Source of the DNA: Planctomycetales bacterium
Lineage (GTDB): Bacteria > 4484-113
NCBI GenBank assembly: GCA_037445915.1
Contig: JBBIJQ010000058.1
Coordinates: forward strand, 1-11,881
Length of the DNA stretch: 11,881 nucleotides
Reading direction: 5' to 3'
The translations under genes were made by a program, and so were the position numbers. Below, in pieces: positions 1 through 11,881 of this stretch. The first letter of the stretch is position 1; each line of letters opens with the position of its first letter. The notes beneath the pieces are model-generated. The model saw nothing but the letters and a program-made list of their open reading frames with translations, made no database searches and had not been told where the DNA came from.

Positions 1-299
1 CCGATATTTTCCGCGACTGTCAGCGAATCAAAGAGAGCGGATTCCTGGAATACCAGCCCCATCTTCAGGCGGTGTTCCGCAAAGGCGTGCTCAGAACAGT
101 GCGTAACATCCTCGCCGTCAATGATGAGCCGGCCGGAAGTGGGGCGAAGGAAACCCATGATGACTTTGAGCAGCGTGCTTTTGCCCCCGCCGGAAGAGCC
201 GATGATGGCGGTTGTCACATTCCCCTCGGCCACGAGGCTGACGCCGTGGAGGACTTCGGTGTTGCCATAGCCGGCGCGGATGTCTATTAGCTTTAGCAT
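1..299 (-). CDS. mlaF: MlaF/Mkl-family ABC transporter ATP-binding subunit (5' part; continues beyond the left edge)
   Basis: Not in the ORF track; translated by hand from ATG at 299: MLKLIDIRAGYGNTEVLHGVSLVAEGNVTTAIIGSSGGGKSTLLKVIMGFLRPTSGRLIIDGEDVTHCSEHAFAEHRLKMGLVFQESALFDSLTVAENI. It has Walker A GSSGGGKST and the MlaF-type Q-loop region GLVFQESALFDSLTVAEN, and starts after a 1-nt gap from the mlaE stop. Confidence 0.92.
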   Translation of the reverse strand, partial: MLKLIDIRAGYGNTEVLHGVSLVAEGNVTTAIIGSSGGGKSTLLKVIMGFLRPTSGRLIIDGEDVTHCSEHAFAEHRLKMGLVFQESALFDSLTVAENI

Positions 300-300
300 T

Positions 301-1047
301 TCAGAATAGAATCGGCAGCAAGAGCAAATCCAGCCCGAATATCATCACAATGCTGACGACGACGGAATTGGTCACTTCGCGCCCCACGCCCGCCGCGCCT
401 CCTTCAACGCGGTAGCCCATATAACAGCCGACCGCAGCGACGACGATGCCGAAAACAAGGCATTTGATGAAACAGGCGAAGAAATCGTTCGCTACAACAA
501 ATGAGTTGATGTAGAGCGAGTAGCTCGCATAGGAAATGCCTATCTTCGCGTTTGCCATCGCGAAGCCGGCGTAAAAACCGGCGAAGCCGGAGAACACGCC
601 AACTACCGGCAGCATCACCAGCAGCGCGATTATGCGGGGGGCGGTCAAGAACCAATGCGGGTCCGTGGAAAGGGCGCGCAGGGCTTCAATCTGCGAGGTA
701 ATTTTCATAGAGCCGATTTCGCTAGTAATCGCCGAGCCTGCCTTGCCCGCCATCACCACGCCTGAAAGCACAGGAATGAACTCGCGGAGCAACGCGACGA
801 GGAGGAAGCCGCCCGTGTAGTTAGCTGCGCCGCGCTTGCCAAGCTCTTCGGCAAGCAGGTAGCTCATCGTTGCGCCGACAAACGCGCAGACCATCATCGC
901 CAAGGGGATAGTGTTGACGCCGAGGAACTCCATCTGCCGGGCAACTAGCCGCCAGCTTAGACGCCCGGTAAACAGGTAAGTGAGGGTACGAGCCGTATAA
1001 ACGACGACAGCTCCTAAGAAGTCAAATAAGCCAAGAATATGCCCCAT
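301..1047 (-). CDS. mlaE: MlaE-family (MCE/phospholipid ABC transporter) permease
   Basis: 248-aa hydrophobic protein with MlaE signatures QMEFLGVNTIP, LLREFIPVL..AGKAGSAITSEIGSMKITSQIEALRAL..P..FL..PR and GGAAGVGREVTNSVV. Adjacent to the MlaF ATPase. Confidence 0.95.
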   Translation of the reverse strand: MGHILGLFDFLGAVVVYTARTLTYLFTGRLSWRLVARQMEFLGVNTIPLAMMVCAFVGATMSYLLAEELGKRGAANYTGGFLLVALLREFIPVLSGVVMAGKAGSAITSEIGSMKITSQIEALRALSTDPHWFLTAPRIIALLVMLPVVGVFSGFAGFYAGFAMANAKIGISYASYSLYINSFVVANDFFACFIKCLVFGIVVAAVGCYMGYRVEGGAAGVGREVTNSVVVSIVMIFGLDLLLLPILF

Positions 1048-1061
1048 TAGTTCCGGGGCTT

Positions 1062-1090
1062 AGTATAGTCCGTGGGCATAAGTTCGTAAA
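1062..1090 (-). promoter_or_regulatory. Putative sigma70-type promoter for mlaEF
   Basis: Minus strand reads TTTACG (1090-1085), a 17-nt spacer, then TATACT (1067-1062), 14 nt upstream of the mlaE ATG, within the 64-bp intergenic gap. Confidence 0.6.
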
Positions 1091-1111
1091 GCCAAACGTG
1101 GGGGCTATTGG

Positions 1112-4100
1112 CTAGAAAAGTGGGCCGCGCTGCCAGATTTGGATTGCCTTTGCCCCATCCAGAGGGCCGTCTGGGTCAACGGGCATTATTAGCAGCGGGT
1201 AATCAGACACTGCCGGGCACACTTCCAGCCCTAGCGGCGCCCTGAAGTGGAGAAAGACAGGCATTGACTCAACGACTTTCTCTGCCACCCACGAGCCGCT
1301 TCCTGTATTCCACCTGCAGTAATAGACATCGTTGTAGTTCAAGGGATTGGAAGGAGTTGGCGGGTCAGTGAGCCTAGAGTAGCTCGCCAGAGCGATATGG
1401 CCATCCACTATTGCCAGGGCAGGGTCGTGGTAATAAGCGCTTGCCGCCCCGTCAGGGTTGGGCAGGCTTACCGGCATGACATCTTCAGCAGTAAAAGCTG
1501 CGCCATCGTAGGTTGCGCGCCGCAGGCATGCGAGGTCAACAACATCGCTTGCGTGGAGGTCGTAGTAAACAAAATGGACTGTGGGGGGGAATGTGCTGCT
1601 GTCCAGCAGCAACTGGAGGTTGCGGCCGGTGTTGCTGTCTATGCTTGAGCCGGTGTCAAGCCCGCTTACTTTCCACTCGCTGAAAACAGAATCGTAATGC
1701 GCCATCCACAGGCTGCCTTTCTTCGGAAGAGTGCTTCCTCCATAGTATTCGGCAGTGCGCTGGTAAAATACCATCGGGATCCCGCCGCTTCCGAAATCGG
1801 CGATTGCCGCCCGGAGGTGTATTCCCTTGTCCAGGTCCGGGTCGGCCACTCCAAAGCTGTCCCATGACATCAAATCTCCAAGGCGCGACCGCAGTGACAC
1901 CGTTTCATTAGGCAGCGGAACCGACTCGGCAAACAACGCTTGCATCCTGGCAATGCCGCCATAGAAGGTTGAAAACGCAGGCTGGGATGGAACGCCATAC
2001 GCGCTGATGGTATCCGAATTCCAAACGCCGGAGATGTCGCGCACGGCGAGGATATAGTTGGCGCTGTCGGAAAAAGAGAGCATTGGGACGCCTGAATCAT
2101 CTTCGCCCATTTCCAGGCAGCGGACAACACCGTCAGGCGGCACAATGGGACCGTCAGCGGTGACGCTTGAGCCGTCATAAGTGACATAGCGCAGCCTATT
2201 CACAGCTCCTTCAACTGCATAAGCCAGGCGTAATGCGCCGTCTGCCTGAGATTGCGCGGTATCCAAGTAAGTTATGTATGAGCCCGGCGCAGCCGGAAGC
2301 TCGCTCCCCAAGCTTAGCTGCGCGCGAATGTTCCAAGGCGGCGTCGCGCCAACGATGTTCACGTTTTGCTCAGTGTTGGGGCTATCCCATAGCGGGCGGT
2401 CTGACGCGCGCACGCCGAAGTAGTAGCGCACGCCGTCCTGCAAGCCGGGGATTGTGCAGCTATGCGTTACTGCGCCGCTTCCCCTAATGCTTGCCGCAGG
2501 CGGGCCGTCCCAAAGCTGCGCCTTATTGGTTGAGGCGTAAACGCTGTAATAAACCGGGTTGTAGAAGTTATCGGTCGCATAATCCCAGTATATGTAGGCT
2601 TCGCCGAAGCCGGTGCTGACTGCGCGGACGCCCTCCGCGCCCTGCCATGTTGGCGGGATTGTGTCCGCCTGCGCTTCCAAGCAGAATAGCCTCATCTCTG
2701 TAGTGGGAATGAACACGCGCCCGCCAGAGAGCGCAGCGCTCGCGTAAATCGGGCTGCCAAGGTTGATGTCCTGTTTGATATTGCCCTGGAAGTCCAGCAC
2801 ATAGAAATGCCCGTTTACCGAGCCGACGAAGATGCGGTTCGCTGAAGCGGCAGGCGAAGCGAATATCCTGCCGACATCGGCAGTTCGCCATATTTGCACG
2901 CCGGTAACCAGGTCGTGCGCTGAGATGTAGCCTGAAGGAGGGGCGTTAGTCCCCTGTCCTGCAATGACCAGGTTGCGAGCGCCGTCATTTACGACTACAG
3001 GCGCGCCTTGCACCCCGTGGTCCGTGGGATAGATGGTCGCAACCTGGAGGTTGGACGCAGCAAGCGAGTAATACTTGCTGTTGCCAGCGACAGTGTCGCT
3101 TCCGATGACGACTACAATCGGGGCTTCAGCAGGGAATAGCACTGGGGTTGCGAACGTGATGGTTCCTAAGTCTATTGACTTGGAGACTTCAGCGCCGGTC
3201 TGGATATCCAGCTTGTGGACAAATCCATTTTGGCTTGCGACATAGATGAAGGTTCCGTCGGAAGCAGGGCTGCTGCTTATTGCGCCTGATTGAAGGTTGT
3301 TTTTCCACTTCTCTTCGCCAGTAAGAATGTCAAACGCGTAAGCTATACCTTCTTCGCTGCCTGCATAAGCGGTCCCATTGACAATGAGCGCCGAAGAGCG
3401 AACCGGCAGCCCGCTTACCAAGTCAAACTCGCCGGAAGCGGCGCCGTCGGAAAGCTGGCGCAGATAGTACTTGCCGGGGCCGCCTATAACGAGGCGGTTT
3501 TCCCAGAGCGCGGCAGTCGAGGATGAAAGGAACCCTGCGACAATCTCGCTATATATGGGCCAGCCGTCATCCTGGCGGAAAGCGTAAATGCGGCCGTCGT
3601 TGGAGCCGATGTAAGCATTGGCGGCGTCAAGCACCGGCGAGGATTCGTTGTATGTTCCGCTCACCTTGTAAGGCTTGTTCCACCGTTCCACCAGAGGCTC
3701 GCGCAGGGCTTCTGCAAGAATGCCGCTGCGCTGTTCATCCTTGTGCAAATAAGGCCATGGATACGGGTTGGACACGTAGTCGTAAGGCGTTGAGGAAAGC
3801 ATTCTGAGGTTCGGCGGATTCTCACGGAGGCCGTGCTCGTCATATACCCACACGAGGAAAGTGTAGATTAGGCCATTCTCCAGGCCAGTGATGTCCACGC
3901 TAAAAGGCGGCTGGCCCAGCGCAGAACGGTCAAAGCGCTGGAACTGGGCGGCAGGCGGGTAAACGGTAGTGTTTTGCTCCCAGTAAACAACGTAGTGGAT
4001 AGCGTCGCCGTCGGGGTCGGATGCATCGCCGAAGGTTAGCGTTACTTTTCTATTGCCGCCGACGGCAGCTTGCAAGCCCGGCACGCTAACCCAGGATGGC

Positions 4101-5215
4101 GCGCTGTTACCGCCGGTGGTGAATGCGGCTTTGGCGATGTTGGAAAAGAATACAGCGGCATAATCGTCGCTTTCCAGCGAATACGCGCGAACTGCGAAAG
4201 CATAGCTTTCGGCATTCATATTCCATCCAAAGGAGTAGCGGATGCGCGCCTTAGGCGGGACGCCTCCAACATAGAACTTAGCGCGTTTCACCGATGGGCG
4301 CGGCTCGCCGGGAGTGTCGGGGTCGGAGAAAGGAACTGCGGCGAACATCTCGTCGTCAGATGGCTCATAGTCAACCGACGGGATTTCCAGCGCTGAGACT
4401 TCGTAGCCGGTGATTTCGCTGCCGAAGTTCATCGCAATTTGCGTTATGTCCTTTATGTCCAGCTTCCCGTCTTCATTGCCGTCAACCAGCTCGCGCTCCG
4501 GGGTGTCGGCAAGCAGGTTAAAGTGCATCGCTAGGGGAGTTATATCGGCGACGGAGACATCGCCGGAATTGTTGTAGTCGCCTGTATTTACTTCAGTCCA
4601 TTGAAGGTCGGCGTATGTCCCGTTGGCGGTTACTTCAAGGTCTTGGACGCGGGTAGCAAGCGTCTCAAACGGGCGGTTCGCCGACTTAAGCGGAAGCTCC
4701 AGCCGCTGCGAGCCTTGAAATGCGCAGGGGGGCTGCGCGTCGGCGGATCCCTGCGGATGCACGGCAAGGCGGAAGGTGAAGCCTGCTCCACTTGCACCGC
4801 CGATTGCGGCGATGCCGACGGGGACAATGCCTGGGAGCTTGCCGGGGACGGCTATCGCAAGGATTGACGGAGGCGCGCCAACGCTTATTTCCCCCGCGCT
4901 GTATCCTTCGGGAAGGCGGATGTAAAGGTATAACGACGAGGGCGCTCCGGCGAGGGAGGAGATGCGAAGCTCATTGGCGGAGGCGACCGCAGTTATAAAC
5001 CGGAGTGAAAGCGGGTCGTCGTTGGAAGCCGCATCCAGCGCGCTAATCTTAAAGCCCCCGGCGCGGAGAAAGTGCGCCTTCTCCAGCGTACCTAGCAGGC
5101 TTGGCTGCTGCGGCTGGGCTGCGCCGCGCACAGCGGAATGCCTGCTTCCGCAGGCCGAAAAGCCTGCTAGCAGCAGCAATAGTAGCAGCCACCGCAGTAA
5201 CTCAGATCTGCGCAT
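1112..5215 (-). CDS. Large modular surface lipoprotein: lipobox, possible cohesin-like domain, FN3-like domain with inserted dockerin-like repeat, FN3/Ig, PQQ/BamB-like beta-propeller, FN3, C-terminal propeller-like region
   Basis: 1367-aa ORF. Signal peptide MRR..LLLLLLLAGFSA-C22. Twin EF-hand repeats GDYNNSGDVSVADITPLAMHF and VDGNEDGKLDIKDITQIAMNF. FN3 motifs GLENGLIYTFLV and GLQDGVRYYFGVRA. Repeated PQQ-type blades (SSPVLDAANAYIGSNDGRIYAF, YAGSEEGIAYAFDILTGEEKW, IFASPAASANRIFVGSVNGHFYVLD). Confidence 0.85.
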   Translation of the reverse strand: MRRSELLRWLLLLLLLAGFSACGSRHSAVRGAAQPQQPSLLGTLEKAHFLRAGGFKISALDAASNDDPLSLRFITAVASANELRISSLAGAPSSLYLYIRLPEGYSAGEISVGAPPSILAIAVPGKLPGIVPVGIAAIGGASGAGFTFRLAVHPQGSADAQPPCAFQGSQRLELPLKSANRPFETLATRVQDLEVTANGTYADLQWTEVNTGDYNNSGDVSVADITPLAMHFNLLADTPERELVDGNEDGKLDIKDITQIAMNFGSEITGYEVSALEIPSVDYEPSDDEMFAAVPFSDPDTPGEPRPSVKRAKFYVGGVPPKARIRYSFGWNMNAESYAFAVRAYSLESDDYAAVFFSNIAKAAFTTGGNSAPSWVSVPGLQAAVGGNRKVTLTFGDASDPDGDAIHYVVYWEQNTTVYPPAAQFQRFDRSALGQPPFSVDITGLENGLIYTFLVWVYDEHGLRENPPNLRMLSSTPYDYVSNPYPWPYLHKDEQRSGILAEALREPLVERWNKPYKVSGTYNESSPVLDAANAYIGSNDGRIYAFRQDDGWPIYSEIVAGFLSSSTAALWENRLVIGGPGKYYLRQLSDGAASGEFDLVSGLPVRSSALIVNGTAYAGSEEGIAYAFDILTGEEKWKNNLQSGAISSSPASDGTFIYVASQNGFVHKLDIQTGAEVSKSIDLGTITFATPVLFPAEAPIVVVIGSDTVAGNSKYYSLAASNLQVATIYPTDHGVQGAPVVVNDGARNLVIAGQGTNAPPSGYISAHDLVTGVQIWRTADVGRIFASPAASANRIFVGSVNGHFYVLDFQGNIKQDINLGSPIYASAALSGGRVFIPTTEMRLFCLEAQADTIPPTWQGAEGVRAVSTGFGEAYIYWDYATDNFYNPVYYSVYASTNKAQLWDGPPAASIRGSGAVTHSCTIPGLQDGVRYYFGVRASDRPLWDSPNTEQNVNIVGATPPWNIRAQLSLGSELPAAPGSYITYLDTAQSQADGALRLAYAVEGAVNRLRYVTYDGSSVTADGPIVPPDGVVRCLEMGEDDSGVPMLSFSDSANYILAVRDISGVWNSDTISAYGVPSQPAFSTFYGGIARMQALFAESVPLPNETVSLRSRLGDLMSWDSFGVADPDLDKGIHLRAAIADFGSGGIPMVFYQRTAEYYGGSTLPKKGSLWMAHYDSVFSEWKVSGLDTGSSIDSNTGRNLQLLLDSSTFPPTVHFVYYDLHASDVVDLACLRRATYDGAAFTAEDVMPVSLPNPDGAASAYYHDPALAIVDGHIALASYSRLTDPPTPSNPLNYNDVYYCRWNTGSGSWVAEKVVESMPVFLHFRAPLGLEVCPAVSDYPLLIMPVDPDGPLDGAKAIQIWQRGPLF

Positions 5216-5960
5216 AGTTGATAACGGCTACTCCCTTTTCCTGAAGCCATGCCGCCAGCTCAGGCGAGCAGAGCACCTCAAGCTCTTCCCCGCGCTCCTC
5301 GCGGTAGGAAGAAAACCCTTCTGGCAAGCTTTCAACAAGGCCGGGGTGGCACATTACTTCAACCGTTTCCGCGCGGGCGGAGGCTGCCTCGCACAACAGC
5401 TCCATCAAGCGCCCGCTGCTAAGGTTATTCTTCCCGAAAAAGCCGGTTATTAGTACATCAGGACGCCGCAAACCCAGCCGGGCGAAGCGAGCCGCCATCC
5501 AGGCGGAAGTTGGGCGCACCGCGAGCTTGTGCTTCTCCGCCAATTCCTCTACCGCCGCGAGCGCCGCCGCAAAGCCTTGAATGTGGTGGTGGCCGTCTAT
5601 GTGCGATAACTTCAACCCGGCGTCAAGCAAGTGGTAGAGCTGCGCCTGAAACTCGCCGCGGACTGCCTCGTAAGGGAGAGTTGCCCCGCCATCGGGGCTA
5701 AAGATTAACTTGGCGCTAAAGTTCCCTTCGTTATCAAGCCATCGGCAGGGGAACTGCGTCAGCGGCCTCCCCTTAGTGAGGTTGGCATGCAAGCCGGCAG
5801 ACACCCCAGAAAGCTCCTTAAGTTCAGCCAACCCGGAGGCGCTAACAAGGTTCGCCATCACCGTCGTGGCTCGCACAACGCCCTCGCGCATTGCCATTAG
5901 AATCCCGCGTGAAACCTGCGAGTGCAAACCGTAATCATCAGCATTGAATATAACTCTCAC
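5202..5960 (-). CDS. ydjC: YdjC/ChbG/HpnK-family carbohydrate deacetylase
   Basis: 252 aa with family motifs IFNADDYG, GLHANL, SHIDGHHH and EVMCHPG, plus the C-terminal R..EL..L. GTG start overlaps the upstream TGA (GTGA, 5957-5960). No signal peptide. Confidence 0.9.
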   Translation of the reverse strand: MRVIFNADDYGLHSQVSRGILMAMREGVVRATTVMANLVSASGLAELKELSGVSAGLHANLTKGRPLTQFPCRWLDNEGNFSAKLIFSPDGGATLPYEAVRGEFQAQLYHLLDAGLKLSHIDGHHHIQGFAAALAAVEELAEKHKLAVRPTSAWMAARFARLGLRRPDVLITGFFGKNNLSSGRLMELLCEAASARAETVEVMCHPGLVESLPEGFSSYREERGEELEVLCSPELAAWLQEKGVAVINYAQI

Positions 5961-8353
5961 TGGCGGGCATCCTTTCGCGAGCTTTCATCAAGCAGCTTCT
6001 TAGCTTGAACGAGAAACTCGTCGGCGAGCTTCACCTGTTCCGGCGAGGGGTTGCGCGGGGAAAAGGCTGCTTGTTCGTAAAGGAGCATGAAGCCCTCCAA
6101 ATCACCTTTGCGCTCCTGGAAGAAAACAGCGAGCTTACGGCGGAACTCCTGGCTCGTGTCGGATGGATCGCGCCCCAACGATGAGACGCCAAGGAGTTTG
6201 GACAGCTCCAGATAATCGGCGATTATCCTGTTTTGCGGGTAAAGCGGGATGGCTCGCGGCTTGCGCTTCTTCGCCATCATCCCCAATAAAACTACTAGGG
6301 CGGCGAAAAGCAAAATTGAAGGGAGAACAAACCAGCTTGTTAGGAGAAGCGGCTTAAGGACATTGTAAAGGCCAACGAAGAAGCTCATGATCGTCTGCTT
6401 TGCGCCGGCAGGATCAACAATAAATAGGTTTTCCAGGAAGCTTGTCGCGCCGTGAACCGCTTCAACAACTGTGTTGACGCTGAAGACATCGGAGCTGCTC
6501 TGTGTCGGGTCAAAGGCGATCCAGCCCAGCCCGTCAAAGTAAACCTCCACCCACGCATGGGCGTTGCGGTCGCGGTAAACGTACTTATTGCCGATGATGG
6601 AATAACCGCCTGGGGCATAGCCGGTTACGATGCGAGCGGGGATATTGTTAGCGCGGCAGAGCACCGCCATTGCTGAAGCGAACTGCTGGCAGTAGCCTTT
6701 CTTCGCCCGGTTGATGAAAGCGTCGGTTGCCTCTTCATCCTTTGCCAACGGAATGATGTCTGTGTTGTAGGCGAACTCATCCGGGTTCATCAGGTAGTCG
6801 TAGATGCGCTGCACCTTGTCTTTCTGCGTTGCTGCGCCTTCCACAAGCGCTTGCGCTTTGGTGATGACGCTGTAAGGCACAGGCACGACTTCGTGCCCGA
6901 TGATGCGCATCATTTCCGCGCGGTTAGCCTCAATCGGAAGTTGTGTGTATCGCTTGACGATTTCAGCGGGCGGGTCGGAAGCCACCTGCGACATTTGCTT
7001 GCGGCGCACACTAGGCGCGAGCACAGTCAGCTTGTAGCTGTATTTGGTGGGATGGCGTGGCAGCGCAGACTTAACAATGGTGAAATCGTTTACCTTCGGC
7101 GAAGGGTCGTATGCCTGCTGTTCTATCGTACGGACGACGGAGATGTCCTCAATCTTCACCGGCTGGTATGAGCTGAAAAATATCGGAGGATGGTCTTTTG
7201 CGAAGATGACTTCCTGCGTAATGATGTCGTAGCGCAGCGAAGGGTCTTCATTATTAGAATAGGTATTGCCGTCAATTACTTTGATTCCGCGCTCTTTGAG
7301 CTGGCTTTCCGCATAGGCACGGGAGGGAAAGTCAATCGCGGGCACCTCGTAGAACTGCGCGAATGCAAAGTAAGCCGACCTGCCTCTCGCCGGCTTTTCG
7401 GTAAGTGCAACCTGCGGCAGCGGCTCCCAGCTTTGCCCAGTATAGAAGTCAAACACCGCCCCGCGAAGATAGCCGTTGGAACTGCTCCGCACTTCCAGCG
7501 CCACTGCGTTGCTGAAGTAAAGCGAGCTGGGGCCGAAAACTGAGCGGTTGTTAGCCAAATCAAACGAGTCAGAGAAGCCGGAAATCGAGAGTTCGCCCGC
7601 CCCCAGCGAAACGTCGCCCTCCTTGTTCTTGAGCGCTAAGCCCTCAACTGTTTCGTCCAGCGCGCTCACTTGCGGCAGGAAGAACGCTTGTCGGTTGATG
7701 TTCGTGTAGTGCGGGACGAAAATGTAAACGACGACTGAGATGGTGATAATGACAGCTACGACGCGCACAATCAGCCCGCCGACGGCGTACATAAACTGAG
7801 CGGCCTGGTTAGGGCTCAACGCCTCGTCGCACCCAATGTACGCTACGCGCTTTTGGAGGTCTATCGCGTTTGCGAAGTAGAGGCCGGTGGAGGCGAAGAT
7901 AAAGAACAGCGGGATGTAAACGACCATCAGCAAGTCAAAGCTTGTGGCTGCGGAGAAAATGACAAAGACGACGCCCATCAGCAGTATCTGGAGCTGCATC
8001 CGGTACTCAAACGAAATGAACGAAAGCAGCACCATCATTATCCCGGCAAGCATCCCCAGGTAGTTTCCGATGGAGGAGTAGTCCTGAACCATTTTATAGA
8101 CGTATAAGCTTACGAACAGCAGCCCGCCGATATCAACAGAAATTCTCGCTAATGCATATAGGCGCTGTTCTAAAAAGTAGCCGAAAATGAAGCCTGCGGT
8201 GGTCACCGCCATCAGCGTCACTTTCAGCATTGGCTGGTCAAGGCCGAGGTCTAAAATTTGCAGCGAAGTAAGGCTGGCGAGGCAAACGGTCAGGAACAAA
8301 ATAAAGCGTTCCTTCCTCGAACGGTGCTCTGCTGCAAGCTTCAGGACGTCCAT
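5957..8353 (-). CDS. Membrane-anchored transglutaminase-like protein (TgpA-type: N-terminal multi-TM region, transglutaminase core, C-terminal TM and DUF4129-like tail)
   Basis: 798 aa. About 7-8 N-terminal hydrophobic segments, YLRGAVFDFYTGQSW motif and an intact triad: Cys555 (GYCQQFASAM), His599 (HAWVEVY), Asp615 (GWIAFDPT). AGGTG RBS-like motif upstream, overlapping the DUF58 stop. Confidence 0.92.
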   Translation of the reverse strand: MDVLKLAAEHRSRKERFILFLTVCLASLTSLQILDLGLDQPMLKVTLMAVTTAGFIFGYFLEQRLYALARISVDIGGLLFVSLYVYKMVQDYSSIGNYLGMLAGIMMVLLSFISFEYRMQLQILLMGVVFVIFSAATSFDLLMVVYIPLFFIFASTGLYFANAIDLQKRVAYIGCDEALSPNQAAQFMYAVGGLIVRVVAVIITISVVVYIFVPHYTNINRQAFFLPQVSALDETVEGLALKNKEGDVSLGAGELSISGFSDSFDLANNRSVFGPSSLYFSNAVALEVRSSSNGYLRGAVFDFYTGQSWEPLPQVALTEKPARGRSAYFAFAQFYEVPAIDFPSRAYAESQLKERGIKVIDGNTYSNNEDPSLRYDIITQEVIFAKDHPPIFFSSYQPVKIEDISVVRTIEQQAYDPSPKVNDFTIVKSALPRHPTKYSYKLTVLAPSVRRKQMSQVASDPPAEIVKRYTQLPIEANRAEMMRIIGHEVVPVPYSVITKAQALVEGAATQKDKVQRIYDYLMNPDEFAYNTDIIPLAKDEEATDAFINRAKKGYCQQFASAMAVLCRANNIPARIVTGYAPGGYSIIGNKYVYRDRNAHAWVEVYFDGLGWIAFDPTQSSSDVFSVNTVVEAVHGATSFLENLFIVDPAGAKQTIMSFFVGLYNVLKPLLLTSWFVLPSILLFAALVVLLGMMAKKRKPRAIPLYPQNRIIADYLELSKLLGVSSLGRDPSDTSQEFRRKLAVFFQERKGDLEGFMLLYEQAAFSPRNPSPEQVKLADEFLVQAKKLLDESSRKDARQ

Positions 8354-8357
8354 AGTG

Positions 8358-9599
8358 TCACCTAATAAACCTTACCTTCTCTACGAATGTATCTAGCTGT
8401 TTCACCAGGTCATCGCCATACGCTAGCTCAAAGATGAGGAAGTTCTGGCCGAAGCTGACGCGCGACCGGGGGGTCTTGGAGGATGCACCCTTGCGGAAGC
8501 TCTCCAAGTCAAAGGTAATCACCGAGAGCAGCCGATAGTTCAGCCGCAGGTTCGCCAGGAAGCGCGACTCGGTCCCCGTAAGGTGCGGGATGAAGACGAT
8601 GAGGTCGGAGCCCGCAGGGAGAGAGCCCAAGATGTCGGACGAATAATTAGTGAGATCAAGTTTCTCGCCGGAACTTATTTCCGCAAGCTGGAGCGATATG
8701 CTCTGGAAAAAATCCGAGCCCATGCCGGAAGAGCGCGACTCGTTGCGCCCGTTCAGCTCCAGGAACGAGAAATAGTAGTGCGAGCGACTCGTCTCCCTCG
8801 CCAACGTTGACACGAGCGTAATGGAATACTCCAGCGGATTATGCTCAGCTTCGCGCCCGATAGCGCTGCGGTCGTCGTTCACCAGCAGCACGCATAGCGT
8901 TGAAGCGACGTTGCGCTCAAACTGTTTGGTTATCAGCTTTCCCAGCCGCGCCGTGCTCGCCCAATGAACCTTGCGAAGCTGGTCGCCGGACTGGTATTCG
9001 CGCACGCCGAGGAATTCGGTAGAGCTGCCGGGAATGCCGACGGTTGAGAGCTCGTCTTTTGCAACCTGCGATGTGCTGCGCAGGTAACTCACTTGCGTCT
9101 CCAGCGGGGTAGGCAGCACAACCAAGTCGGTAAAGACATCCACTTTGCGGATGTTGCGGTAAAAGCCGAAGGGGTCGCCGGAGTAAAAGTAAAACGGGCC
9201 GATAGTATAACGCCCACGCTTTGATGGAACAGCTTCATATTCAACCGCCACGCTTGAGCGCGCGGCAAGGCTCAACAGCGCCACTTCGCGCAAGTGGTCG
9301 CCCTTCTTCGCGGGTGTGAACTGGTCGTATCCCACCAGCGCGAACCGGTGAGTGCGGAAACGGTTGCTTATTGTCAGCAACACGCGCAAGGGGTAGCCGC
9401 GCAGGCAGGTCTGCGAGTGGCTGCGCTCTACTGTGAGGCCGCGCGTGCTAAAGAGTGCCCACAAGAACAGCCCGATGTTAGCAGTTGCAAAGAGGACGGC
9501 TGTGTAAACGAGGAGGTGGTTCTTGAACAGCGCGACTAAAATGAAGGTGAAAACCGTGAGGGCCAGGGATACGCGCGAAAGTTGTGTTAGCCTATACAT
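8358..9599 (-). CDS. DUF58-containing, vWA-related membrane-anchored MoxR partner
   Basis: Core motif EFLGVREYQSGDQLRKVHWASTARLGKLITKQFE, preceded by RGRYTIGP..SGDPFG..LVVLP and two N-terminal TM helices. ATG 9599 (MYRLTQ, 413 aa) is preferred over the track's 9686 start, which would overlap moxR by 68 nt. Confidence 0.9.
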   Translation of the reverse strand: MYRLTQLSRVSLALTVFTFILVALFKNHLLVYTAVLFATANIGLFLWALFSTRGLTVERSHSQTCLRGYPLRVLLTISNRFRTHRFALVGYDQFTPAKKGDHLREVALLSLAARSSVAVEYEAVPSKRGRYTIGPFYFYSGDPFGFYRNIRKVDVFTDLVVLPTPLETQVSYLRSTSQVAKDELSTVGIPGSSTEFLGVREYQSGDQLRKVHWASTARLGKLITKQFERNVASTLCVLLVNDDRSAIGREAEHNPLEYSITLVSTLARETSRSHYYFSFLELNGRNESRSSGMGSDFFQSISLQLAEISSGEKLDLTNYSSDILGSLPAGSDLIVFIPHLTGTESRFLANLRLNYRLLSVITFDLESFRKGASSKTPRSRVSFGQNFLIFELAYGDDLVKQLDTFVEKVRFIR

Positions 9600-9618
9600 G
9601 GCCCAGCCAGAACGAGCC

Positions 9619-10620
9619 TCATTGGACCGGAACCGGCAACTTCTTGAGAATGCCTTCCACGACTGCGCCGGGCTTGACACCCGCAAGCTGGGCTGAAGGA
9701 AGCATTATCAGCCGGTGCGAAAAGACTCCAAGAGCCATCGTTTTCACATCGTCGGGAGTCGCATAATCGCGCCCGTCTATCAGCGCCCATGCCTGCGCCG
9801 CGCGCATGAGCCCCAAGCTTCCGCGGATTGAAGCGCCCACGAGGATATCGGGGTGGCTTCGCGTCTCTACGCTAAGGCGCACTATGTAGTCGCGCAGCGA
9901 AGGCTTCAGGAAAACCCGGCGGCTGAACTGCTGGAATTCGCCCAGCTCGTCAAGCGATGTCACCGGAGCGATTTCCTGGATGGGGTGCATCTCGCGCTGC
10001 GCCTCTAAAGCATCCGCTTCCTCCGCAGCCCCCGGATAGCCAATGGAAAGCCGCAGCAGGAAACGGTCAAGTTGCGCTTCGGGAAGGTCGTAGGTGCCCT
10101 GGTGCTCAATGGGGTTTTGCGTCGCCACCACGAAGAAAGGCTTGGGCAGCGGGTGCGTCACGCCGTCCACCGTCACCTGGCGCTCTTCCATCGCCTCCAG
10201 CAGCGCGGACTGCGTGCGCGGGCTGGTGCGGTTGATTTCATCGGCGAGGAGGATATTGGTGAACACCGGCCCGGGGTTGAACGAAAACTCGCCAGTCTTC
10301 TGGCTGTAAACGGTTGAGCCCGTCACGTCGGCGGGCAGCAGGTCGGGTGTGAACTGGATGCGCGTAAATTTAGCGGCGATTGAACGCGCCAGCGCGCGCG
10401 CCAGCATCGTCTTGCCCACGCCGGGGACGTCCTCCAGCAGCACATGCCCGTCCGCGAGCAGCGCAGCCAGCACCTTGCGGATTACCTCTTCCTTGCCGAA
10501 AACGACGCGGGATATGTTGTCGGTGATGCGCTGGATTTGGCCCGACGCGCGCATCACCTCCTGGGGGTCTAGCGTAGAGCCTTCCGCTACCATTTGATTT
10601 TTCAGCCTAGCATTAGCCAT
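9619..10620 (-). CDS. moxR: MoxR-family AAA+ ATPase (MoxR-proper type)
   Basis: Walker A EDVPGVGKT, RIQFTPDLLPADVTG, Walker B LLADEINRTSPRTQSALLEAM and ATQNPIEHQGTYDLPEAQLDRF. Start is probably ATG 10620 (or 10593), because an extended -10 box lies inside the track's longer ORF starting at 10698. Confidence 0.95.
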   Translation of the reverse strand: MANARLKNQMVAEGSTLDPQEVMRASGQIQRITDNISRVVFGKEEVIRKVLAALLADGHVLLEDVPGVGKTMLARALARSIAAKFTRIQFTPDLLPADVTGSTVYSQKTGEFSFNPGPVFTNILLADEINRTSPRTQSALLEAMEERQVTVDGVTHPLPKPFFVVATQNPIEHQGTYDLPEAQLDRFLLRLSIGYPGAAEEADALEAQREMHPIQEIAPVTSLDELGEFQQFSRRVFLKPSLRDYIVRLSVETRSHPDILVGASIRGSLGLMRAAQAWALIDGRDYATPDDVKTMALGVFSHRLIMLPSAQLAGVKPGAVVEGILKKLPVPVQ

Positions 10621-10639
10621 TGCGCATTCCGCACCCGTT

Positions 10640-10648
10640 ATTATAGCA
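10640..10648 (-). promoter_or_regulatory. Extended -10 promoter element for the moxR operon
   Basis: Minus strand TGCTATAAT is a perfect TGnTATAAT, 19 nt upstream of ATG 10620, at the edge of an AT-rich divergent intergenic region. Confidence 0.65.
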
Positions 10649-10745
10649 AAGCCCAGACCAGCGGTTTCTTTCTTGGGTATAGGCTCAATATAAAGCATAA
10701 GTAAAGTTTTCTATTCGTAACCCATACAACCGCCATTTTGGGCGG

Positions 10746-10751
10746 TATACT
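10746..10751 (+). promoter_or_regulatory. Putative -10 element for the divergent lipoprotein gene
   Basis: TATACT about 30 nt upstream of GTG 10781. No convincing -35 (CATACA at 17-nt spacing). Confidence 0.45.
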
Positions 10752-10757
10752 AAGTTG

Positions 10758-10769
10758 AGACTTAAGTCT
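10758..10769. promoter_or_regulatory. Perfect 12-bp palindrome, candidate operator
   Basis: AGACTTAAGTCT is its own reverse complement and begins 7 nt after the TATACT box, at the predicted +1. Confidence 0.35.
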
Positions 10770-10780
10770 TTGGAAGGAGT

Positions 10781-11881
10781 GTGCGCCAAGCCATTACAGC
10801 ATTTGCGGTCGCCGCTTTGCTTTTCGCGGCAACATGCGGGGGCCATACGCGCAATGCAGCGCGCACTTCCGGCTTAACGCCGGAAGCCACTTCGCCAACC
10901 AAGACGGCATCGATCATTCCCGCAGACGAGCGGCTTGTCGCGCGCGATGCGGGCATTGCGTTGAGTGGCGGGGGATACACGCTTACATGGAAGTATGAGA
11001 ATCCCGGGGATTACGGCCAAGACGGGAAGGCGGGCGTTGAGGATGTAACTCCCATCGCGCAGCACTTCGGCGAAGCCGTGTCGCCGGAAAACGAGTGGAT
11101 AAAGGTTAACGGCACCGGCGTAATTGGAGTATCCGAGATAACTCCCATCGCCATGAACTGGGCGAGCGAAGTCACCGGCTACCGCATTGACGGCGCGGAT
11201 GCTGCCGAAGGGCCGTGGAACGAAATGGCGCAGATAACGCTAGAAAAAGGCGACACAGCGAACGGCAGGCTTGCCTTCTCAGACGAAATCGCGCCTGGAA
11301 ACACATACTACCGCATCGTGACGCTAACACCCGAAGGCGACGCGGCTTTCACCGATAACCTCATCGCGCCAAGTAACGAGCCTGTCATATACGGCGTATC
11401 CCCCATGTCCGGCTACCAGCACGAGGAGTACACTTTCACTGCGACGGCCTCCGGCCAGGAACCTCTGACCTATGCCTGGGATTTCGGCGGCGGCGCTTCG
11501 CCTAACACTTCTTCCGCCATCTCGCCAAACGTCACCCTCTCCGACGCAGGCGACTATTCCGCCACCCTCACAATATCCAACTCCTACGGCCCAACCACTT
11601 TCCCCTTCACGCTTTCGGTGACTGCGCGCGACATGTGGTCTCATACCTGGGGGGGGAGCTTATCCGATGAGGCGGTAGACATTTGCACTGACGGTGAAGG
11701 AAATATATACGTGGTTGGCAAGACACAGAGCTTCAGTGCAGGTGATGAAGATACATTGATCTTGAAGTACGCTTCCGACGGAACGTTGTTGTGGGCAAGA
11801 ACTTGGGGCGGGCAAGGCTATGATTCTGCCGTCGGAATCGCGGTGCTTAGTATCGGAGGAATTGCAGTCGGAGGAAGAACA
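10781..11881 (+). CDS. Modular putative lipoprotein: FN3-like domain with inserted dockerin-like repeat, PKD domain, SBBP-like beta-propeller repeats (partial; runs off the right edge)
   Basis: Not in the ORF track; 367 stop-free codons from GTG 10781, with in-frame TAA at 10763 upstream and GGAAGGAG just before the start. Translation: MRQAITAFAVAALLFAAT-C19-GG...YTLTWKYENPGDYGQDGKAGVEDVTPIAQHFG...VNGTGVIGVSEITPIAMNW.SEVTGY...; PKD YAWDFGGGASP..P.VTLSDAGDYSATLTISNSYG; propeller repeats WSHTWGG..SDEAVDICTDGEGNIYVVG and LILKYASDGTLLWARTWGG. Confidence 0.88.
   Translation, partial: MRQAITAFAVAALLFAATCGGHTRNAARTSGLTPEATSPTKTASIIPADERLVARDAGIALSGGGYTLTWKYENPGDYGQDGKAGVEDVTPIAQHFGEAVSPENEWIKVNGTGVIGVSEITPIAMNWASEVTGYRIDGADAAEGPWNEMAQITLEKGDTANGRLAFSDEIAPGNTYYRIVTLTPEGDAAFTDNLIAPSNEPVIYGVSPMSGYQHEEYTFTATASGQEPLTYAWDFGGGASPNTSSAISPNVTLSDAGDYSATLTISNSYGPTTFPFTLSVTARDMWSHTWGGSLSDEAVDICTDGEGNIYVVGKTQSFSAGDEDTLILKYASDGTLLWARTWGGQGYDSAVGIAVLSIGGIAVGGRT

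Follow-up and report, generated by a model that had tools for sequence, protein, structure and literature searches.

Within the 11,881-nucleotide stretch of DNA analyzed here (the window; contig JBBIJQ010000058.1, positions 1 to 11,881 of the forward strand, assembly GCA_037445915.1, from a Planctomycetales bacterium of GTDB lineage Bacteria; 4484-113), a gene at 1112..5215 (minus strand) encodes a 1367-residue lipoprotein whose predicted structure very probably includes a dockerin nested in the B-C loop of a fibronectin type III (FN3) domain. The same layout recurs in a second lipoprotein encoded in the window and in dozens of other proteins of the source genome. We regard as fairly probable the overall interpretation that this FN3-nested dockerin module is conserved, has been multiplied, and docks to the organism's own cohesins; for the docking taken alone, we judge the case to be evenly balanced.

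The module occupies positions 4125-4648 (minus strand), i.e., residues 190-363 of the 1367-residue open reading frame (ORF), and its translation exactly matches the one quoted in an earlier note that had been made from the sequence of the window. FN3 strands A and B (residues 190-208; 4592..4648, minus strand) end at the strand-B Trp, W206, and are followed by the dockerin insert (residues 212-265; 4421..4582, minus strand), which comprises two Ca-binding loop/helix pairs joined by a short helical linker; strands C to G follow (residues 266-364; 4124..4420, minus strand). The AlphaFold2 model of this module, for which an alignment of 20 paralogous modules from the source genome was used, had a mean predicted local distance difference test (pLDDT) score of 85.8 and a predicted template modeling score of 0.80. 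DSSP assigned strands at model residues 2-9 and 12-18, and then, after helices at 33-42, 50-55, and 65-73 (pLDDT 92-97), strands at 81-88, 137-142, and 149-156. A long loop at module residues of about 100-130 (pLDDT 62-70) is specific to the 1367-residue protein and its orthologs, which are 52-77% identical to its module (P0048-P0063).

Comparison of the model with a library of 48,161 representative chains by VIA-align returned FN3-type domains for all 50 entries listed (Z 7.2-8.9, 79-97 residues aligned); each of these is a single domain of ∼90 residues, and the alignment nevertheless spans model residues 1..175, across the insert. The best FN3 superposition was with 7mrs_A (Z 8.9, root-mean-square deviation [rmsd] 2.1 Å over 82 residues, model range 1..175). 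Because Z values of 7-9 are only middling according to the tool's own warning and may reflect common arrangements, independent support for the fold was sought. In a Foldseek search of the PDB, FN3 domains recurred below the top row, which was a dockerin, and were aligned over 173-180 columns. A second model, covering residues 26-364 and obtained with an ortholog-only alignment of 11 rows, had a mean pLDDT of 60.2 and again yielded a split FN3 domain (Z 5.8-6.8 in 47 of the 50 rows listed, range about 154..336). When the profile of the 20 paralogs was searched against PDB sequences, FN3 domains of titin were matched weakly at profile positions 81-136, corresponding to the C-F part (E 0.002).

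The FN3 landmarks also were examined in 191 unique modules collected from the source genome, related loci, and public proteins, on which all conservation figures given here are based. The FN3 consensus has a Trp in strand B, a Tyr in strand C, and a Tyr/Val/Ala pattern in strand F. In the modules, the Trp at the end of strand B is conserved in 94%, the Tyr of the I-T-G-Y motif that opens strand C in 93%, and the strand F pattern Y-R-V-x-P/A shows Val in 75% and Pro/Ala in 84%. The insertion point lies between the strand-B Trp and the strand-C I-T-G-Y and is therefore the B-C loop, as the earlier note had proposed. That note had also named two observations that would speak against its proposal, flanking strands that fail to form one sandwich and an insert unlike a dockerin; what we found instead was a single beta-sandwich around the insert, modeled twice, and an insert with clear likeness to solved dockerins.

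The top Foldseek row was 2y3n_B, a solved dockerin of Bacteroides (Pseudobacteroides) cellulosolvens (E 3.6e-3, probability 1.00, target TM-score 0.80, rmsd 1.6 Å, 60 columns), and VIA-align superposed 60 of its 60 residues on the predicted model (range 17..81) with a Z of 8.7, an rmsd of 2.0 Å, and 30% identity. The paralog profile reached the same chain by sequence (E 1.4e-7), followed by the Acetivibrio cellulolyticus X-dockerins 4wi0_B (3.1e-6) and 4u3s_B (4.7e-6) and by 4fl4_A (3.3e-5); the B. cellulosolvens and A. cellulolyticus proteins are the nearest dockerins. The insert thus has the paired 12-residue calcium loops of a dockerin and, as judged on the predicted model, a superposable loop-helix/linker/loop-helix arrangement. 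Loop 1 (D213-D224, D-Y-N-N-S-G-D-V-S-V-A-D; 4544..4579, minus strand) is conserved among the modules at positions 1 (D, 97%), 3 (D/N, 85%), 5 (D/N/S, 93%), 6 (G, 95%), and 12 (D, 97%), and loop 2 (D245-D256, D-G-N-E-D-G-K-L-D-I-K-D; 4448..4483, minus strand) at positions 1 (D, 90%), 3 (S/D/N, 94%), 5 (N/D/S, 89%), and 12 (D, 92%). The joint recurrence of calcium ligands and FN3 landmarks is far beyond chance. Each loop is followed by a helix of the form D-[IV]-T-P-[LI]-A-M-[HN]-[FY]-G, with Thr at 90-92%, Pro at 76-92%, and Ala at 92%. The Thr-Pro that opens each helix is unusual for dockerins, in agreement with a suggestion that the module represents a distinct specificity class; however, the remaining L-A-x-x-F-G lines up position by position with that of the B. 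cellulosolvens dockerin and also fits the A. cellulolyticus dockerins well, so that this suggestion holds only in part.

Both window proteins begin as lipoproteins. In the 1367-residue protein, a signal peptide with the lipobox M1..A-G-F-S-A-C22 (5150..5215, minus strand; read by eye) is separated from the module by an N-terminal beta-sandwich (residues about 40-155; 4751..5098, minus strand), modeled with pLDDT 65-92 over most of its length. Beyond the module, Pfam identified an fn3 domain (residues 380-463), a PQQ-like beta-propeller (about 521-744), and a second, weak FN3-like match (about 900-942), followed by a long tail with no assigned family. The C-terminal ∼430 residues (about 940-1367; window 1112-2400, minus strand), although without a Pfam family, are conserved in seven of seven orthologs read. 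The second lipoprotein gene (10781..11881, plus strand) runs off the window and encodes the lipobox ..FAATC19, the module, and then PKD domains and SBBP propeller repeats, as recognized from its ORF and by Pfam. Its module (10943..11365, plus strand) matches profile positions 3-148 (E 1.5e-46), and its parts were assigned from sequence and profile: strands A and B at 10943-11005, the dockerin at 11006-11161, and strands C to G at 11162-11365. The two modules share 34% identity over about 120 residues (BLASTP, E 3e-17). The layout outlined in the earlier note survives this comparison: the segment GDYNNSGDVSVADITPLAMHF..VDGNEDGKLDIKDITQIAMNF that it had located at 4421-4582 comprises residues 212-264/265, correct within one codon, G76 of GDYGQDG falls at 11006 in the second gene as claimed, and the module is common to two lipoproteins, with signal peptides ending in C22 and C19, whose C-terminal parts differ.

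The earlier note had understated one aspect, because a conserved module with different C-terminal cargoes is present in dozens of proteins per genome rather than in two. In the source genome (1.79 Mb, 90% complete), 33 places were detected by a one-sequence search and 34 by the profile, and phmmer recovered the same layout in 31 six-frame ORFs. All 24 genomes of the phylum that were searched with the profile, representing 13 genera and four families, carry the module with 14-119 matches each, whereas three of 81 sampled genomes of a control phylum (genomes of ∼1 Mb) gave one match each; the module is therefore hugely enriched in the source phylum, yet not exclusive to it. One control-phylum genome of ∼0.7 Mb encodes a full module (G049:C1:538777-539196, plus strand; profile positions 12-148, E 2.3e-34) in a 327-residue ORF of a contig at least 539 kb long, which could represent horizontal transfer of the nested module. 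Among 1.84 billion representative proteins, 4534 matched at E≤1e-3, 1955 at E≤1e-10, and 373 at E≤1e-30, and the public genome records with the module are metagenome-assembled genomes, mostly titled 'Planctomycetales bacterium'. Several module genes lie at contig ends (C27, C36, C44, C52, C64, and C82 of the source genome, G000, and the window end at 11881); the repeated module probably breaks the assembly, so that 34 copies is a lower bound. Four matches in the source genome contain one in-frame stop each (C64:240-485, TGA; C25:16643-16930, TAA; C10:4091-4291, TAG; C27:769-954, TAA). These could be pseudogenes or assembly errors, and nothing in the mixture of stop codons points to an alternative code.

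The position of the module behind a lipid anchor is equally general. Lipobox calls were made by eye and with a regular expression. By this approach, all 27 source-genome module ORFs in which the N-terminus is present showed a signal peptide ending in Cys, usually C-G-G, and four others are cut by contig ends or stop codons. Among 205 public module proteins, 182 start with Met, and a lipobox-like motif could be recognized in 141 of these; the module begins at a median of residue 105. Two full modules occur in 21 of the 205 proteins and three in one, and in one of the 150 best-scoring representatives a module lies at residues 1008-1155. The segment between the Cys and the module takes two forms among the paralogs of the source genome. 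About a dozen have a short form of ∼70 residues with a conserved helical motif (A-L-A-E-L-D-A-L..P-P-G-V-D..V-F-Q.L-K-D), which may be part of the functional unit, and about eight, including the 1367-residue protein, have a long form consisting of a beta-sandwich of 145-185 residues.

The cargo that follows the module is varied. Pfam analysis of 24 module proteins of the source genome detected PKD domains in 11, fn3 in three, and a PQQ-like propeller, SBBP repeats, and CarboxypepD_reg in one each, with no family in eight. No glycoside hydrolase or other enzyme family was found (Pfam, E≤0.001) in any of 26 proteins, comprising these 24 and both window proteins. According to precomputed Pfam assignments, one public relative contains PF00082, which we take to be subtilase, and one contains PF00578, presumably AhpC/TSA. 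In addition to its nested dockerin, one protein of the source genome (L141; G000:C36:946-3039) has a canonical C-terminal Dockerin_1 domain at residues 637-686 that scores 36.0 bits, above the Pfam cut-off.

Potential partners for the module are present in the same genomes. Two proteins of the source genome have a Pfam Cohesin (PF00963) match above the cut-off, with one cohesin each: a 638-residue lipoprotein encoded on C33 that has long Pro/Ala/Glu-rich linkers (26.9 bits for the whole protein) and a 570-residue, FecR-like protein encoded on C59 whose gene adjoins one for a large multi-pass membrane protein. Across the phylum, Pfam Cohesin was detected in 23 of 24 genomes (1-10 matches each), and the C33-type cohesin domain in 21 of 24, among them all 13 of high quality; in most it is present once. 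Next to the C33 cohesin gene, L099:48-950 (plus strand) encodes two copies of a domain, the start of which, by eye, is similar to a type II secretion pseudopilin or type IV pilin-like protein. Cohesin and module also meet within proteins and loci. A 1044-residue lipoprotein of a same-family genome has a Pfam Cohesin domain at residues 123-206 (28.8 bits, exceeding the cut-off) and, immediately after it, the module, with its dockerin at residues 247-295. In the same genome (G001, L156), the gene for a 276-residue lipoprotein composed of an Ig-like domain and a Pfam-positive cohesin (444-1274, plus strand) lies 103 bp upstream of the gene for an 854-residue module lipoprotein (1377-3941, plus strand), and the two products are a possible cognate pair.

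Cohesin-related sequences extend to some of the long N-terminal domains of module proteins. That of the module protein encoded on C7 of the source genome is 36% identical to a cohesin of this same-family genome (E 5e-20), and an alignment of seven paralogous long N-terminal domains matched the C33 cohesin alignment by hhalign with a probability of 79.6% (E 1.5e-5). When nine N-terminal domains from module proteins were searched with Pfam, Cohesin was matched only once and weakly (E 0.008), and not in the window protein. A fold search with the N-terminal domain of the 1367-residue protein returned generic glycosidase beta-sandwiches only (VIA Z 5.8-6.0); with the two-domain model, Foldseek gave nothing below E 0.02 for this domain, and the cohesin+FN3 entry 2w1n ranked seventh, with a similarity (TM-score 0.19-0.27) too weak to be used. 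This N-terminal domain may be cohesin-like. A complex prediction for a C33-type cohesin and the module gave no answer (score 0.00, controls not run) and, according to the tool, speaks neither for nor against binding.

We propose that the FN3 sandwich would hold the two ends of the dockerin together and present it at one pole. A clasp between the two termini is described as stabilizing solved dockerins (PMC3821032), and we infer from this description that the FN3 domain acts as a built-in clasp and pedestal. The module sits just past the lipid anchor or past one extra N-terminal beta-sandwich. With Ca2+ bound, the two conserved D-[IV]-T-P-[LI]-A-M helices would form the docking face for cohesins of the same organism, the candidate partners being the conserved single-copy cohesin lipoprotein and the cohesins that directly precede the module in some carriers. 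Varied binding lipoproteins would in this way become part of a cohesin-dockerin network of the cell envelope, distinct from a cellulosome. A tentative extension of this proposal, which we consider rather doubtful, is that the phylum organizes much of its envelope proteome by such a lipoprotein-borne network, with cohesin-bearing carriers chaining head-to-tail or plugging into a single-cohesin anchor.

Several results weigh against the reading of the module as a nested dockerin that binds cohesins. Pfam fn3 (PF00041) matched none of 20 modules at E≤1; the 60-residue insert splits the domain, and the fn3 match in the 1367-residue protein is to the next domain. Dockerin_1 (PF00404) scored 15.3 bits with the whole window protein (residues 212-260) and 19.0 bits with the module alone, below the cut-off of 22.9, and matched seven of the 20 paralogous modules at E≤1. 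The Pfam check suggested in the earlier note thus fell short for both families, whereas the profile of the family itself did reach solved dockerins. In the ortholog-only model, the dockerin insert had a pLDDT of only 30-40 and was not folded, so that the confident dockerin geometry comes from one model and one alignment. For the 1367-residue protein itself, no link between its N-terminal domain and cohesin emerged: hhalign with the ortholog alignment gave a probability of 0.3%, and BLASTP against a Pfam-positive cohesin an E of 0.94. Lipid anchors are already present on the module proteins and on the candidate partner, which makes docking unnecessary for mere retention, and the conservation of the helices could be structural, reflecting packing on the FN3 domain. 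Finally, the source genome has two cohesins above the cut-off for about 34 modules.

This imbalance, together with the calcium ligands being the most conserved positions, would be in keeping with the nested double EF-hand being a Ca2+-dependent structural element only (a membrane-proximal stabilizer, rigid spacer, or Ca2+ switch) with no cohesin partner. Peer et al. in 2009 reportedly described many non-cellulosomal dockerin-like modules without a known partner, which we count on the same side. A purely structural role does not readily explain why the helices are conserved to the same degree as the calcium ligands or why cohesins occur in nearly all genomes of the phylum and, in a relative, share a protein with the module or are encoded beside it, and we consider it unlikely. 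Still less probable, in our judgment, is a role in sorting or export, with the module serving as a folded N-terminal tag by which some machinery would recognize lipoproteins and flip them to, or place them at, the cell surface. The constant position after the lipobox, the very high copy number in every genome of the phylum, and the unrelated cargo from protein to protein would suit such a tag; however, we identified no candidate machinery, export signals in known systems are short peptides rather than a 150-residue folded domain, and the 22 of 205 proteins with two or three modules, as well as the module that starts beyond residue 1000, fit a binding unit better. A further alternative denies the nesting itself and holds the dockerin to be an ordinary bead between unrelated short beta segments, with the FN3 domain an artefact of structure prediction. 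The absence of Pfam fn3 matches and the middling Z values would be in keeping with that, but the listed structural neighbors are without exception single FN3-type domains that align across the insert, the independent alignment agrees, the landmarks are kept on both sides of the insert, and titin FN3 matches the C-F part by sequence; we regard this alternative as highly improbable. The nested, cohesin-binding dockerin accordingly remains our preferred interpretation, at the strength given at the outset.

The module resembles cellulosomal dockerins in having, within about 60 residues, two 12-residue calcium loops (D/N/S at positions 1, 3, and 5 and D at 12) that both lead into a helix with F-G at its end, and in its 28-30% identity to 2y3n_B (rmsd 1.6-2.0 Å). 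It differs in being nested rather than at the end of the protein, in its N-terminal location beside the lipid anchor, and in the Thr-Pro helix starts; furthermore, its carriers are binding-type proteins with no enzyme family, and the modules are mostly below the Pfam threshold. It cannot be classed as a cellulosome: enzyme cargo was absent from the 26 proteins scanned, and the source genome, with two single-cohesin proteins, showed no multi-cohesin scaffoldin. The XDoc dyads of type II dockerins (5g5d_B, 4u3s_B), which are among the Foldseek and profile matches, likewise pair an Ig-/FN3-like sandwich with a dockerin, and the XDoc sandwich presumably buttresses its dockerin. In XDoc, however, the sandwich precedes the dockerin in tandem, whereas in the module strands B and C of the sandwich are separated by the dockerin. 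The FnIII-2 domain of the insulin receptor, which appeared among the VIA-align matches, is another FN3 sandwich that tolerates a long loop insertion; its insert, unlike that of the module, is in the C-C' loop and is not a folded Ca-binding domain.

Two other cohesin-dockerin systems without a cellulose link have been proposed in uncultured diderm lineages. A hypothetical 'planctosome' of freshwater Planctomycetes was put forward as a non-cellulosomal cohesin-dockerin system (PMC6461901), and nine dockerins in a giant Omnitrophota ORF were suggested to be adhesins (PMC10066038). Both share with the present case the combination of cohesin and dockerin and a proposed role in surface-protein assembly, and both differ from it in having ordinary tandem domains in few proteins; here, the dockerins are nested, occur in dozens to more than 100 copies per genome, belong to lipoproteins, and in some carriers follow a cohesin. 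No report of a dockerin nested in an FN3 domain was found in the open-access literature, as judged by titles and the beginnings of abstracts. In the ESM Atlas, one 159-residue cluster bears the automatic name 'Dockerin type I/Fibronectin type III domain-containing protein' (score 0.88), which we treat as a lead only; proteins of this kind may thus already be present in databases with machine-given names.

The familiar dockerins sit like beads at the ends of secreted enzymes. The dockerin described here is instead nested and lipid-anchored, is present in 14-119 copies per genome, and belongs to an uncultured phylum whose genomes are small. Nested domains escape annotation pipelines, and the curated Pfam cut-offs overlook most copies. 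If the module does dock to the co-occurring cohesins, the cohesin-dockerin principle would reach beyond cellulose degradation and apply to surface assembly in general, the attachment of these uncultured cells to particles or partners would become approachable, and protein engineering could draw on a compact, clasped dockerin scaffold. Should the more doubtful envelope-wide network also prove correct, it would amount to a self-assembling surface layer of adhesins, a form of cell-surface construction undescribed for any diderm.

The gene for the 1367-residue lipoprotein forms the downstream end of a same-strand run at 5202-10698 (minus strand) of the window. This run encodes a MoxR-type AAA ATPase (9619-10698), a DUF58 protein (8358-9686), a TgpA-like transglutaminase (5957-8353), and a YdjC-like protein (5202-5960) whose gene overlaps the start of the lipoprotein gene, all on the minus strand, and three other genomes (L021-L023) preserve the TgpA-YdjC-lipoprotein order. 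The next gene downstream of that for the lipoprotein encodes an MlaE permease (301-1047, minus strand; Pfam E 3e-62) and is followed by the start of an ABC ATPase-like ORF (3-299, minus strand) that is probably MlaF. These last two genes point to a diderm envelope with maintenance of lipid asymmetry.

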